Shown here one piece after another: positions 4,142 through 63,994 of a stretch of 64,000 bases of DNA (within the stretch, counting starts at the first letter, position 1; every line of letters begins with the position of its first letter). Position numbers and translations under genes: made by a program. The notes beneath the pieces were generated by a model. It was not told where the DNA came from, did not search any database, and saw only the letters and a list, made by a program, of their open reading frames with translations. Source of the stretch: Phycisphaerae bacterium. Its GTDB lineage: Bacteria > Planctomycetota > Phycisphaerae > SM23-33. Where the stretch lies: the NCBI GenBank assembly GCA_021108335.1, contig JAIORC010000188.1, forward strand, positions 10,240-74,239, in the 5' to 3' direction.

Positions 4142-4200
4142 CGCCGCCGGCAATTAATCAATAGCCCGGCGCGTAATACTGTGCGCGATAAGTAATGCTT

Positions 4201-4230
4201 GGGTGGCATGGTTTGCTTGCAAGCCATGTG
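4201..4230. repeat. REP-like palindromic element (GGGTGGCATGG-hairpin-CCATG family)
   Basis: gggtggcatggtttgcttgcaagccatgtg. The same core recurs at 12.8-13.2 kb, 41144, 59896 and 62921. Confidence 0.6.
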
Positions 4231-4277
4231 TTTTTCGTGTATTCCCAGTACCAGTTTCCTGGTTCCTGTTTTAACCC

Positions 4278-4454
4278 GTTTTGGGTAGGCCGGGTCTTGA
4301 CCCGGCGATAAGAAGGCGACAGCCTTCTTACATGGAAATCCCCTCCGATAACACATCCATGGGAAATGTATTTTTTGCCACGGGTGCCCCGAATTGGACG
4401 AATTTGTTGCATGTGCCATGCAATTGCCGGGTCAAGACCCGGCCTACCCAAAAC
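4278..4454. repeat. MITE-like element with perfect 29-bp terminal inverted repeats
   Basis: gttttgggtaggccgggtcttgacccggc at 4278-4306 is the exact reverse complement of 4426-4454. Each arm also contains an internal hairpin (gccgggtc/gacccggc). Mirrored ORFs 4158-4451(-) and 4281-4493(+) both start MGRPGLDPAI as an artefact. Confidence 0.5.
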
Positions 4455-4583
4455 TGCTTAAACCACACCCAATCCCCCGCCAATTGGAATTGAGCAGCAG
4501 TCCCCAACCCAGTGCAATATAATGCCTAACTCTTTCTCTCTCCAGGACATATAAAAATTTACCCCCTTCCCGCATTTTATGGG

Positions 4584-11697: not shown

Positions 11698-12783
11698 TTA
11701 CTCAATCCAGCCGCCGCCCATGAGAATTTCCCCGTCGTAGACCACCGCCGCCTGGCCGGGCGTTATGGCGTGTATCGGCTCGGCGAAATCCACGGTAAAC
11801 GTGTCCGGGCCTGTTATTTTCACCCTCGCCAGTGCCCCGCGGTGGTTATAGCGAATCTGTACCGTCGCGTCGAATTCCGTTACGTCAGGCTGAGACTGCC
11901 AGACTGCCCCGGCTGCGTTCAGCGAGCGGCTGGACGCCTCTGCCCGCGTGCCGATGGTAACGTCGCCGCTGATCGGATCGATACGCGTAACATACATCGG
12001 CACGCCCGTAGCCACGGCAAGCCCCCGCCGCTGGCCTATCGTGAACTGCCCATAGCCGTCGTGCCGGCCAAGCTCATCGCCGGCGGTGTTGAGAATCCGC
12101 CCCGGCTTAAGTGCCTCCGGTGCTCGCTCGGCAAGCAGCCGAACGTAATCGTCATCTTCGACGAAGCATATCTCCTGGCTGTCCGGTTTGTCGTGGACGT
12201 CCAGCCCACTCTGCCGGGCGATTTCCCGCACGAGGGCTTTGTCGGCGATTTCGCCCACCGGTAGGAGGATGCGGCTGAGCTTTTCCGGTGGAATGCTGAA
12301 AAGTGCGTAGGACTGATCCTTCCGCACGTCGCAGCCGCGAGCGATAACGGGCTGGTCCGCCCGCTCGGATATCCGGGCATAATGGCCGGTGGCTACGTAA
12401 TCCATGCCCAGCGAGTCGGCCAGTTTCATCAGCCTGCCGAATTTCAGTTTCGCGTTGCAGTAGATGCACGGGTTTGGGGTTCGCCCGGCGACGTATTCCC
12501 GCAGGAAATATTCGATAATCGGGGCGAAATGCTCCTTGAGGTTCAGCACGTGCAGATCGATGCCGAGACTCTGGGCTACGCGTCGGGCGTCGGCGGCGTC
12601 CTGCGGGCTGCAACAGCCGCGGTCGCTGCCGGCATCGCCTGCCGAGCCGAGACACATGAACACACCCGTGAGGTCGTAACCCTTCCCCAGCAGCAACGCC
12701 GCAGCTACCGACGAATCCACCCCGCCGCTCATAGCCAGCAAAACCTTCCCGGCGCCTTTCGCATTTTTCGCATCCAAAGCCAT
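11698..12783 (-). CDS. mnmA: tRNA 2-thiouridine(34) synthase MnmA
   Basis: PP-loop AMSGGVDSS, conserved Cys (FMCLG, NPCIYCN) and an MnmA C-terminal domain. Confidence 0.9.
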   Translation of the reverse strand: MALDAKNAKGAGKVLLAMSGGVDSSVAAALLLGKGYDLTGVFMCLGSAGDAGSDRGCCSPQDAADARRVAQSLGIDLHVLNLKEHFAPIIEYFLREYVAGRTPNPCIYCNAKLKFGRLMKLADSLGMDYVATGHYARISERADQPVIARGCDVRKDQSYALFSIPPEKLSRILLPVGEIADKALVREIARQSGLDVHDKPDSQEICFVEDDDYVRLLAERAPEALKPGRILNTAGDELGRHDGYGQFTIGQRRGLAVATGVPMYVTRIDPISGDVTIGTRAEASSRSLNAAGAVWQSQPDVTEFDATVQIRYNHRGALARVKITGPDTFTVDFAEPIHAITPGQAAVVYDGEILMGGGWIE

Positions 12784-12830
12784 GACGATATCTTACCGCA
12801 TGTTTCGTATGGCAGCCATATCCTCTTTTG

Positions 12831-13206
12831 GGTGGCACAGGTTTGCAACCTGTGCCGTGGTGGCCTGGGAAGGCCACCACGCGAAAGGGTTTATGCAATT
12901 TCCCACGATGTAGGGTGGCATGGTCAGCGGCGATAGCCGATGGCCATGAAAGATAGATACACGATGGCGGATGGTATGTTGGGTGGTTTTGAGAAAAGGA
13001 TGGCGTAGAAATTGTGAATCGATCTTTCATGGCTACCCCGCAAAAAACGCGGGGTTTCCATGCCACCCGATATCGTGGGAAATTGCCCGGTGCCATGCTT
13101 CTGCTTGCAGAAGCATGCGGTCCCAGAAAAAATCCTGGGTGGCATGGCGACACCGCAGGGGTCGCCATGAAGAATCGTGCGGAAACCGCGTGGGTGCAAG
13201 CACCCA
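12831..13206. repeat. Cluster of at least six REP-like palindromic elements (BIME-like array) in the mnmA/yqaA-like intergenic region
   Basis: Hairpins ggcacaggtttgcaacctgtgcc, cgtggtggcctgggaaggccaccacg, ccccgcaaaaaacgcgggg, gcatgcttctgcttgcagaagcatgc, gggtggcatggcgacaccgcaggggtcgccatga and gggtgcaagcaccc. The ORFs called here are translation artefacts of the repeats. Confidence 0.65.
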
Positions 13207-13267
13207 CCCTACAATTACGCGTGCGTTTAATATTGACCTCCATTGGCCAATGCGCTATCGTACCGGC

Positions 13268-14002
13268 ATGGAAAAAGTCAATTGTCCGAAATGTAATCTG
13301 AAAATATCCGTCGAAGCCGCGTTTTGTGAGCATTGCGGGGCGAAAATCGCCAAGCACAAAACCGCTCCGTGGTGGCATGTCCATCGGCACGTCTACGACT
13401 GGACGCTGGCCTGGGCGTACAAGCCCTCCGCCGCCATCGCCCTGTTCGTGCTGAGTTTCGCAGAGAGCAGCTTTTTCCCCGTGCCGCCGGACGTACTGCT
13501 TATGCCCCTGGTTCTCGGCAATCGCAAGAAATGGCTGCGATACGCCACCATTTGCAGCGTCGCCAGCGTGCTTGGTGCGCTGTTCGGTTTTCTCATCGGC
13601 TGGCAGCTCTGGACGCAATTAGGTGTGGACAAATTATTCTTCGATTACGTGCCCGGCTTTTCGCAGGAGACGTTTGATAAAGTCAGTGCGCTGTACAATG
13701 AGTACAATTTCTGGATTGTCTTCACCGCCGGCTTTACGCCGATACCATTCAAGGTGATTACCATCACCGCGGGTGTTTTTGGTACGGGGGCGTCGGTGGA
13801 TAATCCGGGGCTGTTCTTCGCTGTGTTTGTAATCGCCGCGACAGTCAGCCGCTCGGCGAGGTTCTTCCTGGTCAGCGGGCTGATGTGGAAATACGGGCCG
13901 AAGATCACGCCCTTTATCGACAAGTATTTCAATTGGCTGGCGTTGCTGTTTACCGTGCTGCTGATCGGCGGCTTCGTGATAATTAAAATCGTGATGCACT
14001 GA
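13268..14002 (+). CDS. Zinc-ribbon fused to YqaA/DedA(VTT)-like membrane protein
   Basis: N-terminal CPKCN...CEHCG zinc ribbon followed by a multi-TM domain resembling the YqaA family. An alternative start lies at 13250. Confidence 0.55.
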   Translation: MEKVNCPKCNLKISVEAAFCEHCGAKIAKHKTAPWWHVHRHVYDWTLAWAYKPSAAIALFVLSFAESSFFPVPPDVLLMPLVLGNRKKWLRYATICSVASVLGALFGFLIGWQLWTQLGVDKLFFDYVPGFSQETFDKVSALYNEYNFWIVFTAGFTPIPFKVITITAGVFGTGASVDNPGLFFAVFVIAATVSRSARFFLVSGLMWKYGPKITPFIDKYFNWLALLFTVLLIGGFVIIKIVMH

Positions 14003-41082: not shown

Positions 41083-41243
41083 CCGGGCGCACAAAATTAG
41101 TGCGATCGCGAGTAAAATGTCTAATGACTAAAAAAACACGCTGGGTGGCATGGCGACACCGCAGGGGTCGCCATGAGGGATGGCGTAGGAATTGCGTGGT
41201 GGCCTTGTTACCTCGTCTGGCGCACTAACTTTGTGCGCCCGGT
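41083..41243. repeat. MITE-like element: REP-like hairpin flanked by 23-bp inverted repeats
   Basis: accgggcgcacaaaattagtgcg at 41083-41105 versus cgcactaactttgtgcgcccggt at 41221-41243 (22/23 complementary). Inside lies gggtggcatggcgacaccgcaggggtcgccatga (41144-41177), identical to the copy at 13135-13170. Confidence 0.5.
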
Positions 41244-59841: not shown

Positions 59842-59895
59842 ATATTGACTGTTGAAATACCCAAGTCGTAGCCAATAATGTCGGCCATGAAGCGA

Positions 59896-59933
59896 CCAGT
59901 GCCGTGCTTCTGCAAGCAGAAGCACGGCACTGG
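59896..59933. terminator. Perfect 18-bp-stem REP-like hairpin between convergent genes, candidate bidirectional terminator
   Basis: ccagtgccgtgcttctgc-aa-gcagaagcacggcactgg followed by gcatttttt on the + strand. Same family as the 13094-13119 hairpin. Confidence 0.5.
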
Positions 59934-59963
59934 GCATTTTTTGGATGGTTGGTTATATGTTTC

Positions 59964-60872
59964 TCAGGCGGTTTTGCGCCGGCGTTGTTGTTTGAGGAGC
60001 AGGCCGATTCCGCCGCCGACCAGCAGGCAGAGCGTCGCCGGTTCAGGTACGATCTCCCAGCCGATATCGCTCAGGCCGGCTTCGTCCAGATCGGTAAAAT
60101 ATTTCCGCTTCCCGTTGGCGATAGTCGGATCCATCGCTGCTTCCTGGTCAACGCCGTCAACTTCGCTTTTGGTGCCTTCTTTCCAGTGGGCATTATCGTT
60201 TAACGGAACATCATCGCCATACTCCGCCCTCGCTGCGGGGCCTGTAAAATCGCTGCCACTAATATAATTCTGCCAGGGCGTTGCCCCGCCGATTCCCAGC
60301 ACATGGCCCATTTCGTGTATCGCGACCGATAGAAAATCATACTCGTCAGACTCTGGGTCGTTAGCGGAGAAGTTCCAGCTATAATCAGTTGGTAGATTAG
60401 TATTGAAGGAAACCGACCCGCCCCATGGGCCGAAATCGGTAATCGGGTTTTCCCCGCGGCTTGCCACTAAATCCAGCCATGCTGCGGTACCGACGGCGCT
60501 GTAACCACCGGCGCCGCCCTGGCCCAGGGCGCCCATATCCCGCCCGCCGGCGTAGACGATAAGCGTGTCGGCGGCGACGTTCATGTCTATCTCTCCGCTT
60601 ATCGGAAGGCCGGTAGCAGGATTGGAGAACTGTGGTGTCCAGGTATTCACCCCGCTGGGCGTAATCGCCAGCAGAGTGTCATTAAGAATGCCCTCGTAGT
60701 AAGATGCCACGTCGTCCATCCTGTCCCGGGCAGCCAAGCCGTCGGCTGTGCTGGTGTCAAAGAAACCATTCGCGTTGTCGTCGTAGTAGTAGTCGAAAAC
60801 GACATCAATCGCTGCCGTTGCGGGGGAAATCGAAATAAGGCAAACCGTAAGAATCAGAACTGCACGTCTCAT
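59964..60872 (-). CDS. Secreted zinc metalloprotease (HExxH zincin) with PEP-CTERM sorting signal
   Basis: True start MRRAVLILTVCLISISPATA (signal peptide); AIHEMGHVLGIGG zinc-binding motif; C-terminal VPEPATLCLLVGGGIGLLLKQQRRRK. Confidence 0.7.
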   Translation of the reverse strand: MRRAVLILTVCLISISPATAAIDVVFDYYYDDNANGFFDTSTADGLAARDRMDDVASYYEGILNDTLLAITPSGVNTWTPQFSNPATGLPISGEIDMNVAADTLIVYAGGRDMGALGQGGAGGYSAVGTAAWLDLVASRGENPITDFGPWGGSVSFNTNLPTDYSWNFSANDPESDEYDFLSVAIHEMGHVLGIGGATPWQNYISGSDFTGPAARAEYGDDVPLNDNAHWKEGTKSEVDGVDQEAAMDPTIANGKRKYFTDLDEAGLSDIGWEIVPEPATLCLLVGGGIGLLLKQQRRRKTA

Positions 60873-61312
60873 AATGCTCTCCATCTCGTCAGAACCAGCC
60901 GCGTGCAAAAGCGCACGGTAACCTGTTTTGCCTCGCATACGTCAGCAAGGCCATCTTCAGTGAGCACAACATGAGCGCACAACTCAAAAGAATTGAACGG
61001 CAAAACATCGACAAAACGTCCCTTCCCCGCAAACGCAACCAAGCGAACACCGGTAGACAGAAAAAGCGACACCGAACCCAAGGCTATTTTGATTCAGCTT
61101 TGATTCAGCGCGTTCTTCCGCTATCGCAGATGTTCTGAAAAGAGCGATGGCGAGCAAAATGTTTTGTCCAACAAGCCGTAAATTCTCGAGTCGTAATCCT
61201 CCTCGAGCAGAGCTAATAAGCAAAGGTTATTGTACGTCTAATACGGATTTTGTCAAGTAATATCGCCGCATCGGCAGATGTAACCACTTATTGTGTTTGC
61301 GGTTAAGATTTT

Positions 61313-63994
61313 TTAATGGAGTCTGCCGACGAGGTTGCGGTAGTCGATTTTTCCCGTGCCGAGCAGCGGCAGTTCGTCGATGGCGATTACGCGGCGGATG
61401 TTGTGCAGGCCGCTCATGCCGGCGGCGCGGATTGCCTGGTTTGCGGCGGCGCGATCAATCGGCCCGACGGCGAACATCACGACCTCAGGCCGTTCTTCGT
61501 CCGGCGTCGCCACCACCGCCAGGGGCGGCCTGTCGTCATCCTCCCGGTGAAATCGCTCCGCCAGGACAGCCTCGATCGCCGGAAGCGAAATCATCTCGCC
61601 GCCGAGCTTGACGAACCGTTTGAGCCGGCCGCTGAATGTCAACACGCCCTCGGCGTCCTGCCTCATAAGGTCGCCGGTGCAATACCAGCTCCGCCCGTCG
61701 AGCTCCACGAACGGCGACGGCCCGTCGTAATCCAGATATCCGCCAAATACGCTAGGCCCGCGAACCAGCAACATGCCCTCGCCGCCAGGTTCGACCCGCC
61801 CCCGCAATTCGGGATCCACCAGCACATACTCCAGCGAACCCATCACCCTGCCGATGGTGCTGGCGTGAGCGTCGGATTCGTGGTTGACGGAGATCATCGG
61901 CGAGCATTCGGTTACGCCGTATCCTTCCAGTACGGTGGTCTGCGGGCACTGCCGGGCCAGTGTGTCGTAGAGGCGAGCGGGGCATTTTTCTCCGCCGCTG
62001 ACCACCAGCCGCAATGACTCAAGCTGCCGCGACTCCGACGCCCGCAGTATGCCGCTGAGGAACGTCGGCGTGCCGCCCAGAATCGTCGCCTTGTACAGAT
62101 CGATCATCCGCCCCACCACCATGCCGTCGGTGGGATTTGGGTGATGCACCACGCGGACGCCCAGCACCAGCGGCAGCAGCGTTGTTACGGTCAGGCCGAA
62201 CGAATGGAATGGCGGCAGGATGCCCAATATGCTGTCGTGGCGGCTTACGGTGAAGCAGTCGTAGGCGTCGCGGATATTCGCCAGAATGTTCCGGTGGCTC
62301 AGCGGTACTGCCTTGGGCGTACTCTCCGACCCGCTGGTGAACAGAATGACTGCTGTCTTTGTTGCGCGAGACGCCGCAGCCCGCAAACTCCCCCAGCCTA
62401 GCCGGTAAAATCGCGATTTGACGAACGCCTGCAGCTTTTCCAGCCGTCCGAGATTTGCGACGATGTCCTCGATATAAACGAACCGCTCCGCCAGCCCGCC
62501 CAGATCGACCCCTTGGGCAGTCAGTCGCGTAACCAGCGCCCTGGCGGTGAGAATCCGCTGCGTACCACTGGACTTGAGGCAGTGCTCCAGGTTCCGCGGG
62601 CCTAGCGTCCAGTTGATCATCGCGGGGGTCTTGCCGGCGAATTGTGTCGCCAGAAACAAAACATCCGCCGCCACCGATGCCGGCATCATAATGCCCACGA
62701 CCTCGCCGGCCAGCGCCCGGATGTGCCGCCGGAGAATCATAATGCTCGTTACCATGTCGCGATATGTTTTGACCCCGCCGGCTTGGTCGGCGGCGATTAC
62801 CTCGCCGGGCCGGCGACCGGCCTGATACAAAAATGCCTCCGGGATATTCATATCCTCCAGCCCCGGCGGACACGGCAGAGTGGCACAATCCTTTGAGAGC
62901 CGTGTGTTTTTCACTGCGCTGGGTGGCATGGCTTGCTTGCAAGCCATGTGTTTCCCCGTATGGCTAAACCACTTTGGCGATACCGGCTTGAGGTTCACCG
63001 CCGCAGCCGAGATCGATTCGCCGCAGGCAGCGAGCATCACGTCGCCGACCGTCTGTATCGCTGTGATGTCGTTCTGCGTAAAGCCGAACTCCGCGCCCAG
63101 CCAGGCCAGCAGCTCCATGCCCGCCAGCGAGTCCATCCCCAAGTCATTGGCCAGCCGCGACGTATCGTCGAAGTCGGCCCGGCCGATCAACTCCGCTAGA
63201 TACTCTCGCACTTGCCGCCGCGTCGCCTGCGGGACAGCCGCGGCATCCCCGGAAATCCGTGGCGGGGTCGGTTCGGGCAGTTCCCGCGTGCCGCCGCGCT
63301 CCCAAATCGTAAGCGGCACGAAGGTGTTTTTAAGTGCGTCGGTGTTGTAGCGGGATTCGAGGTAGCGATTTATTTCCTGCCGGCTGCCCTGGCGGGGCAG
63401 GTCGTCCGGCTCGACAAGTTCGAGCGTAATCTCGCGGCGTGGTGTGAAAAAAAGTCCATTCCGTAGCAGTGCCCAAGCCCCCTGTTTCAGCACAGGCCCG
63501 ACACCTGGTTCCGTGCCGCCGGCCCAACTGAAGCGGCTGCCCCAAAGCCCGCGCGTGCGAACCAGCACTACCCGAACGTCCGGCAATTCGCGGAGAATCG
63601 TCTCCACACCGCTGCCGGCCCGCAGGTCTTCCAATCGCGTTCGCTGCAATTGCCCCGACGGATACAGCACGATATTGTCGCCGCTGCGCAACGCCTCGAC
63701 GCATTGGCCGATGACCGCCCGCACCGCATCCGACGACGTTCCGATTTCCGTCAGGTCGTCGATGGGCAGCACGCGACACCGCCGGGCCAGCGAGCGGATG
63801 AAGAAGCGGTCGATCTGGTTGCGGTCAGCCAGCGCCCGCACCTCGAAAGGCCCGAACAGCCGCGACAGGACAATCACCGGATCGATCAGGGCAGGGTGAT
63901 TCGGCAGGAACAGAATCCCCCGGCTGCCCTTTCCCAGCACCTCAGCCAGCCCGCGGACGCGAATGCGATATCGCAGCCATAGCGCGAATTTCAC
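61313..63994 (-). CDS. Tri-domain Aas-like protein: PlsC-type lysophospholipid acyltransferase - acyl carrier protein - acyl-AMP/acyl-ACP synthetase
   Basis: N-terminal LPLAT motif LPNHPALIDP (HxxxxD); mid ACP motif LGMDSLAGMELLAWL (DSL phosphopantetheine site); C-terminal AMP-binding ILFTSGSESTPKAV, GYGVTE and GDL...GR..R. The N-terminus abuts the window end. Confidence 0.8.
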   Translation of the reverse strand: MKFALWLRYRIRVRGLAEVLGKGSRGILFLPNHPALIDPVIVLSRLFGPFEVRALADRNQIDRFFIRSLARRCRVLPIDDLTEIGTSSDAVRAVIGQCVEALRSGDNIVLYPSGQLQRTRLEDLRAGSGVETILRELPDVRVVLVRTRGLWGSRFSWAGGTEPGVGPVLKQGAWALLRNGLFFTPRREITLELVEPDDLPRQGSRQEINRYLESRYNTDALKNTFVPLTIWERGGTRELPEPTPPRISGDAAAVPQATRRQVREYLAELIGRADFDDTSRLANDLGMDSLAGMELLAWLGAEFGFTQNDITAIQTVGDVMLAACGESISAAAVNLKPVSPKWFSHTGKHMACKQAMPPSAVKNTRLSKDCATLPCPPGLEDMNIPEAFLYQAGRRPGEVIAADQAGGVKTYRDMVTSIMILRRHIRALAGEVVGIMMPASVAADVLFLATQFAGKTPAMINWTLGPRNLEHCLKSSGTQRILTARALVTRLTAQGVDLGGLAERFVYIEDIVANLGRLEKLQAFVKSRFYRLGWGSLRAAASRATKTAVILFTSGSESTPKAVPLSHRNILANIRDAYDCFTVSRHDSILGILPPFHSFGLTVTTLLPLVLGVRVVHHPNPTDGMVVGRMIDLYKATILGGTPTFLSGILRASESRQLESLRLVVSGGEKCPARLYDTLARQCPQTTVLEGYGVTECSPMISVNHESDAHASTIGRVMGSLEYVLVDPELRGRVEPGGEGMLLVRGPSVFGGYLDYDGPSPFVELDGRSWYCTGDLMRQDAEGVLTFSGRLKRFVKLGGEMISLPAIEAVLAERFHREDDDRPPLAVVATPDEERPEVVMFAVGPIDRAAANQAIRAAGMSGLHNIRRVIAIDELPLLGTGKIDYRNLVGRLH
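62921..62950. repeat. REP-like palindrome embedded in frame inside the Aas-like CDS (ACP/ligase interdomain linker)
   Basis: gggtggcatggcttgcttgcaagccatgtg is a perfect palindrome, translated on the minus strand as ...GKHMACKQAMPP... The same peptide string appears in the artefactual ORF over the 4201 copy. Confidence 0.6.

Follow-up and report, generated by a model that had tools for sequence, protein, structure and literature searches.

Two REP-like palindromic units probably inserted, translated and tolerated in the interdomain linker of an Aas-like gene from a Phycisphaerae bacterium

How does a perfect palindrome come to lie, in frame, between two domains of a single polypeptide? The question is raised by a 64,000-nt stretch of DNA from a Phycisphaerae bacterium (GCA_021108335.1, contig JAIORC010000188.1, positions 10,240-74,239, forward strand), which was analysed as a whole and is referred to below as the window. 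The minus strand of the window carries at 61313-63994 a gene, identified as an open reading frame (ORF) with Pfam domains, for an Aas-like fusion of a PlsC acyltransferase, an acyl carrier protein (ACP) and an acyl-AMP ligase, and the palindrome lies in the stretch coding for the tether that joins the ACP to the adenylation domain. An earlier sequence-only reading of this DNA had offered a tolerated repeat insertion in a flexible linker, an intragenic repetitive extragenic palindromic (REP) element, and a frameshift or assembly problem masking two genes. We conclude, with a probability of about 0.85, that two REP-like units tagged with GT[A/G]G were inserted in the tether-coding DNA, where they are translated and carried as a tolerated passenger.

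On the plus strand, positions 62921-62948 read GGGTGG-CATGGCTTGC-tt-GCAAGCCATG. The two 10-nt arms of the hairpin (62927-62936 and 62939-62948) are fully complementary (100%) and separated by 2 nt, and they were the sole pair found by the inverted-repeat tool in 62850-63050. The perfect palindrome reported earlier is present in the ORF (62927-62948), but the 30-mer quoted for it is self-complementary only over its inner 22 nt; GGGTGG (62921-62926) stays unpaired and forms a 5' tag ahead of the hairpin. The hairpin encodes residues 349-356 and therefore sits in the linker between the ACP and adenylation domains (PP-binding, residues 261-318; AMP-binding, 391-754), where the sequence-only reading had placed it.

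The window protein was aligned with 25 homologues (26 sequences), and linker lengths were measured across 120 listed homologues of a total of 1668. The distance from an invariant W (in KWF) to an invariant L (in AFLxQ) was 20-24 residues in 116 of the 120 homologues and 46 in the window protein, which alone in the alignment had 24 additional linker residues. These comparisons indicate that the linker segment is an insertion. It comprises 72 nt (24 codons) at 62885-62956 on the minus strand and residues 347-370, GKHMACKQAMPPSAVKNTRLSKDC, with boundaries uncertain by about 3 codons each way, and HMACKQAMPPSAVK is the peptide sequence at the insert. The reading frame is kept, as had been proposed, although the added segment is 24 rather than about 30 residues long. 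Two of the three frames across the insert are open in gene orientation, so a stop-free in-frame result is unsurprising.

The composition of the insert points to a probable head-to-tail pair of ~36-nt units, one of which has decayed. Unit B (62918-62958, plus strand) is intact and antisense to the gene, with the tag GGGTGG, the hairpin CATGGCTTGC-tt-GCAAGCCATG and the tail TGTTTCCCC. It is an exact match to the 27-mer pattern GGTGGCATGGYTTGCTTGCAAGCCATG, as are 15 copies on other contigs. Unit A (62879-62917, plus strand), which lies head-to-tail with unit B, reads AGTGGCA...AGCCGTGTGTTTTTC and retains the tag, the 3' arm and the tail, with the stem broken.

Relatives of unit B were found elsewhere in the window. 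With up to 3 mismatches allowed, the 22-mer matched only itself and 4207-4228, and there were 0 matches in 100 shuffles. The latter site with its flanks (4198-4238, plus strand, GGGTGGCATGGTTTGCTTGCAAGCCATGTGTTTTTCG) is near-identical to unit B across ~33 nt and is found 60 nt past the stop codon of an ABC-transporter ATPase gene (ABC_tran). The 11-mer head GGGTGGCATGG occurred exactly six times (4201, 12913, 13068 on the minus strand, 13137, 41143 and 62921); shuffles with 1 mismatch allowed gave a mean of 1.3, and none of them reached six. Seven perfect hairpins with a stem of at least 10 bp were detected in the window, whereas dinucleotide shuffles averaged 0.8. Each GGGTGGCATGG head was followed by a stem-loop closed by CATGG/CCATG, with an upper stem that varied among copies, and the hairpin tag of the family is GGGTGGCA. 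Five of the six heads were intergenic: two followed a stop codon at a distance of 60-63 nt, and three lay in a hairpin-packed divergent intergenic region. The DNA in the linker belongs to this dispersed, mostly intergenic family of GGGTGG-tagged hairpins, and the suggestion of an intragenic REP element was supported.

The divergent region contains a cluster of family members (12830-13212), in which the heads at 12913 (plus strand), 13068 (minus strand) and 13137 (plus strand) each have a different hairpin. A related head, GGGTGGCACAGG, lies at 12830 on the plus strand, and GTAGG followed by GTGGGTGC-tt-GCACCCAC lies at 13209 on the minus strand. Nearly the whole of the surrounding ~480 bp (12784-13268), between a gene for an MnmA-like tRNA methyltransferase and a zinc-ribbon/VTT-domain gene, consists of hairpins. 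Within it, positions 12895-13086 form a 192-nt MITE-like inverted pair (MITE, a miniature transposable element with inverted repeats), the arms of which have in common 29 nt upstream of the head and ~22 nt past the stem (CCATGAAAGATnGATnCAC) and enclose wholly different inner hairpins. The member at 41143-41175 (plus strand, GGGTGGCATGGCGACACCGCAGGGGTCGCCATG), 63 nt downstream of a gene end, is identical to the 13137 copy. The 34-nt unit GGGTGGCATGGCGACACCGCAGGGGTCGCCATGA is identical at 13137-13170 and 41143-41176, 28 kb apart, and constitutes a third sub-family that shares the head and stem base. A second sub-family is marked by the canonical GTAG tag and occurs in a REPIN-like inverted doublet at 4267-4465, adjoining the intergenic sibling of unit B; its 43-nt arms are 91% complementary and 113 nt apart, and both contain GGGTAG followed by GCCGGGTC-tt-GACCCGGC. 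Rfam gave no matches in the whole window at the gathering threshold, and a search of 12780-13280 at E values up to 10 returned chance-level matches only (mir-4536 and RsmW), far under the gathering score. A sigma-54 promoter (TGGCAC-N5-TTGC), prompted by TGGCATGGCTTGCTTGCA, was considered and rejected: TTGC is 2 nt too near or too far, and other members carry no TTGC.

Repeat counts for the source genome refer to the 64-kb window, since this genome is absent from the GTDB representatives. GTDB representatives and metagenome contigs were scanned for the exact 27-mer, and the 15 copies found comprised one in a Planctomycetaceae metagenome-assembled genome (MAG) and 14 in 12 metagenome contigs. 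The copy in the Planctomycetaceae MAG lies 16 nt past a stop codon, with an inverted partner after it. None of the 15 copies lay in a plausible gene; long open frames run over the copies in three loci (L009, L010 and L011), but their translations look like non-coding junk, and for this reason they were rejected as genes and the copies were not counted as intragenic. A tail-to-tail inverted partner accompanied 12 of the 15 copies, with the same GGGTG(G/T)GCA head and often a different hairpin. A 28-nt core, GGGTGGCATGGCTTGCTTGCAAGCCATG, was found exact at 7930-8000 of L004 and in L005-L016 (metagenome contigs SDBT01/SDBS01/Ga0180434/Ga0180438), at G+C contents from 0.51 to 0.65 and with a MAG labelled Planctomycetaceae among its carriers. 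Such breadth is unusual for a REP sequence and suggests either horizontal spread or a constraint on the sequence itself.

The family was compared with known palindromic repeats. GTAG-tagged REPs consist of an unpaired GT[A/G]G tag and a 6-13-bp stem, form dimers and coexisting sub-families and lie downstream of ORFs; the GTGG variant predominates in GTAG-20 of Opitutus terrae, a member of the Planctomycetes-Verrucomicrobia-Chlamydiae (PVC) superphylum, and REP families occur in Rhodopirellula baltica (Di Nocera, De Gregorio & Rocco 2013, PMC3733652). A minority of GTAG REPs lie wholly inside ORFs; intragenic copies are most numerous in a PVC genome, mostly as dimers coding for 20-30 aa (PMC3733652). 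The window family likewise consists of short, mostly intergenic stem-loops, each carrying GT[A/G]G as an unpaired tag, with sub-families that differ in their stems, and its intragenic element lies inside an ORF of a PVC host and encodes 24 aa. Unit B combines the GGGTGG tag with a 10-bp stem and a 2-nt loop, in keeping with the tag and 20-40 bp stem-loop of a REP, and other window members carry GGGTAG or GTAGG. Copy number amounts to six exact 11-mer heads and two near-identical ~35-nt units in 64 kb and 15 exact 27-mers elsewhere; the copies are mainly intergenic and downstream of ORFs (5/6 window heads, 15/15 external copies), and inverted dimers are found (12/15 external copies and the window pair at 12895-13086), the intragenic pair being direct. 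Unlike GTAG REPs, the window family has a longer head (GGGTGGCAY) and a shared CATGG/CCATG stem base, its intragenic pair is head-to-tail with one unit decayed, no REP-associated tyrosine transposase (RAYT) has been linked to it, and its host, a Phycisphaerae MAG, lies outside the survey of PMC3733652.

Two other systems share some of these features. Rickettsia palindromic elements (RPEs) are described, in the account of Ogata et al. 2000 given by PMC10969869, as ~100-150 bp in length, encoding a conserved peptide and occurring in frame in unrelated genes. Like them, the window element is a palindromic repeat that lies in frame in a coding gene, is absent from orthologues, adds a peptide compatible with the fold and also occurs outside genes; unlike them, it measures ~36 nt per unit, belongs to another family and lies mostly between genes. 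In the REPIN/RAYT system, as far as PMC3733652 reports it (Nunvar et al. 2010; Bertels & Rainey 2011), the likeness is in the inverted doublets with 20-60 nt spacing that relatives of the window element form, whereas the defining partner, a cognate RAYT gene, was not found in the ~190 kb searched.

The host ORF spans 893 aa within the window; the database annotation of the protein, labelled 'AMP-binding protein' of a Phycisphaerae MAG, has 902 aa, with a start 27 nt past the window end. Pfam detected Acyltransferase (residues 21-120) in addition to the PP-binding and AMP-binding domains, and the end of the upstream MFS_1 (LplT-like) transporter gene overlaps the start of the host gene by 8 nt. 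In E. coli, Aas and LplT constitute a lysophospholipid re-acylation system (NCBIfam PRK08043/PRK08633). The host gene resembles this system in joining a PlsC-type acyltransferase to an adenylation domain of the acyl-ACP-synthetase type and in being translationally coupled to an MFS transporter gene, but it differs in carrying an in-cis ACP between its two enzymatic domains and in scoring far under the NCBIfam equivalog cut-offs. Its best NCBIfam matches were the Aas-type and acyl-[ACP]--phospholipid O-acyltransferase models, at 466 bits against a cut-off of 1221 for PRK08633 and 257 bits against 886 for PRK08043. Because of these scores below cut-off, the gene is termed 'Aas-like', with an additional in-cis ACP. 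The combination of PlsC, AMP-binding and linkage to an LplT-type MFS transporter was nevertheless found, and 'Aas-like, LplT-associated' is a fair name for it.

The insert has left the conserved parts of the protein unchanged. All columns invariant over the 26 sequences were retained in the host protein, among them the DS at the phosphopantetheine (ACP) site, and the TSGSE..PK adenylation motif was intact. An AlphaFold2 model built from the 26-sequence alignment had a mean predicted local distance difference test score (pLDDT) of 81.5 and a predicted template modelling score (pTM) of 0.80. Residues 347-370, which correspond to the insert, formed the sole long stretch with a pLDDT below 50, and the residues directly after it scored 86-97. 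The model thus predicts that the insert is a disordered loop in a linker between intact domain folds, as in RPE-bearing proteins, and the 24 added residues are apparently harmless. Together with the absence of the insert from 116 of the 120 homologues, this agrees with the earlier proposal of a tolerated insertion in a flexible linker.

We also examined the RNA. On the mRNA strand, intact unit B folds as a 9-10-bp hairpin of about -17 kcal/mol, and folding of the wider 121-nt region was not exceptional (z = -1.6). The sequence 3' of the hairpin, CCACCCAGCGCAG, contains no U-tract, so unit B should not terminate transcription. A terminator scan of 62400-63400 on both strands returned no terminator-like site, and an intrinsic terminator inside the host gene was rejected. 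An intrinsic terminator for the upstream ABC-transporter gene is, by contrast, called at the intergenic sibling (4206-4239), with the hairpin at 4206-4229 and a tail.

Insertions in the linker are not confined to the window protein. Two homologues, P0003 and P0116, carry large inserts within the same ~10-residue stretch of the linker. That of P0003 adds 64 aa and is encoded by a row of hairpins, for example CCCTCTCCCT-cgg-AGGGAGAGGG, and a 50-nt piece of it appears again, in inverted form, in the intergenic DNA immediately downstream of the P0003 gene; that of P0116 adds 50 aa and is encoded by a long imperfect inverted repeat. P0055 has two inserts, at reference positions ~441 and 662, and P0050 has one at 441; these inserts lie in loops of the adenylation domain and are built of hairpins with a GTAG or GTGG tag, one example being TATGTAG-CTCACCCG-ccc-TCGGGTGAG. 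The insert loci of the homologues are L002 5793-6002 and 7600-7650, L003 1468-1665, L017 2143-2271 and 2896-3033, and L018 2458-2589. Since these four homologues carry independent inserts, in-frame palindromic repeats are recurrent in this Planctomycetota gene family, which agrees with the published record of intragenic REPs (PMC3733652) and with the RPE precedent.

How the repeat reached the gene can be proposed by analogy with GTAG REPs. We infer that a RAYT-type Y1 transposase mobilised the single-stranded hairpin, together with or followed by a local tandem duplication. Two head-to-tail REP-like units, 72 nt in all, would have entered the tether-coding DNA antisense to the gene and in a stop-free frame. 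The insert would be transcribed within the mRNA, where the intact unit could form its hairpin of about -17 kcal/mol without termination, and translation would yield 24 additional residues as a disordered loop in a linker of non-critical length. Because the length of the linker is not critical, the enzyme would stay functional and the repeat would be a tolerated passenger, presumably neutral and with no function of its own.

Several alternatives were weighed against this account. A sequencing or assembly artefact, in which a repeat-induced mis-join or an indel fused two genes or added spurious sequence, could be imagined because repeats such as this element can mislead assemblers. However, the whole insert is shorter than one read, and both its flanks are colinear with the contiguous three-domain layout common to all homologues, in some of which an MFS transporter is fused in front. 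Moreover, an ENA assembly contains another contig (88,360 nt vs 89,895 nt) with an identical 902-aa protein. This contig differs from the window by 17 single-nucleotide polymorphisms across 12.7 kb and is identical over 62800-63100, insert included; the in-gene differences numbered three (63122, 63125 and 63131), all at third codon positions. Since this second, independent assembly has the same insert and only synonymous differences in the gene, an artefact is very unlikely, and the idea of two genes masked by a frameshift or assembly issue was discarded. Equally hard to credit is a lineage-specific extension of the linker that resembles the repeat by coincidence. Linkers vary easily and an empty-site relative is lacking, but ~33 nt of near-identity to 4198-4238, an exact 27-mer common to 15 intergenic sites and the absence of matches in shuffles have effectively refuted a chance resemblance. 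It is possible, but on balance unlikely, that the insertion is real and that the family consists of dispersed hairpins of a different sort, for instance mobile terminator-like elements, MITE fragments or products of recombination or template switching, rather than RAYT-mobilised REPs. The lack of a RAYT in ~190 kb, the terminator score of the intergenic copy at 4206-4239, a conserved head that exceeds the canonical tetranucleotide and the head-to-tail rather than inverted arrangement of the intragenic pair would all fit such an element; however, the 15 copies on other contigs have no T-tract, and the tag with its stem-loop, the tail-to-tail doublets and the post-ORF sites fit GTAG REPs, including the GTGG variant of PVC bacteria (PMC3733652).

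The remaining alternatives concern function. The hairpin or its peptide could have been co-opted, as an mRNA element (for ribosome pausing during co-translational folding, RNase processing or stability) or as a functional lengthening of the tether, by which both active sites would come within range of the ACP domain. Unit B keeps its perfect 10-bp stem and the exact 27-mer pattern although it lies in coding DNA, and the same linker was expanded independently in 3 of the 120 homologues. We consider co-option improbable, however, since 116 of the 120 homologues work with a linker of 20-24 aa, the three expansions are unlike in sequence and length (+24, +50 and +64 aa), the RNA folding is unexceptional and the peptide is predicted to be disordered. 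It is likewise doubtful, if marginally less so, that the tether and the surface loops of the adenylation domain are preferred landing sites for GT[A/G]G repeats across Planctomycetota and that some copies were retained for a benefit such as a longer tether or an mRNA hairpin. The tolerated-passenger account also has points against it. Neither a heuristic search for HUH-plus-NPV motifs, covering the window and ~125 kb from related loci, nor Pfam analysis of 10 ORFs next to repeat clusters found a RAYT/Y1 transposase, so a transposition mechanism is unsupported here and mobilisation is only inferred. No empty-site relative was found among the homologues, the best non-self one having about 62-64% identity, so that comparison with an uninterrupted site gives no exact boundaries, target duplications or age. 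The homology of unit A to the repeat appears only moderately significant: it shares 26 identities across ~36 aligned positions with the intergenic copy at 4198-4238, a score equalled in 12 cases among 5000 shuffles and in 3 among 4904 background windows. Finally, the exact 27-mer match of unit B could reflect either a recent insertion or selection on the hairpin.

Some other features of the window were recorded. Between 29860 and 56595 lie five to seven tandem paralogous genes of ~1000 aa, with 60-93% DNA identity over hundreds of bases and CBM9-like carbohydrate-binding domains; this expansion is probably a polysaccharide-degradation locus. A hairpin with an 18-bp perfect stem (CCAGTGCCGTGCTTCTGC-aa-GCAGAAGCACGGCACTGG) and a T-run after it separates convergent genes at 59885-59944 and probably terminates transcription in both directions; the hairpin CATGCTTCTGC-tt-GCAGAAGCATG at 13094-13117 is related to it. 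The ORF at 59964-60938 on the minus strand ends in a C-terminal sorting signal of the PEP-CTERM type (VPEPATLCLLVGGGIGLLLKQQRRRK), and a lectin-like protein that adjoins repeat copies in L008 has a similar tail.

Intragenic GTAG REPs are already known from PVC bacteria, and the present case is a genuine new example of the phenomenon that reveals no new mechanism. For annotation, it means that such segments are not to be taken as frameshifts, fusions or novel domains. It provides a clean case of selfish palindromic DNA surviving in an essential-looking multidomain gene by way of a length-tolerant interdomain tether. If the tether and adenylation loops were indeed preferred landing sites, the inserts would represent repeat-driven protein and linker evolution and not pure passenger DNA. 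GT[A/G]G-tagged REP-like elements, for which most descriptions come from Proteobacteria and a handful of PVC genomes, are active in uncultured Phycisphaerae as well as in other Planctomycetota, where they decorate the same protein family repeatedly.

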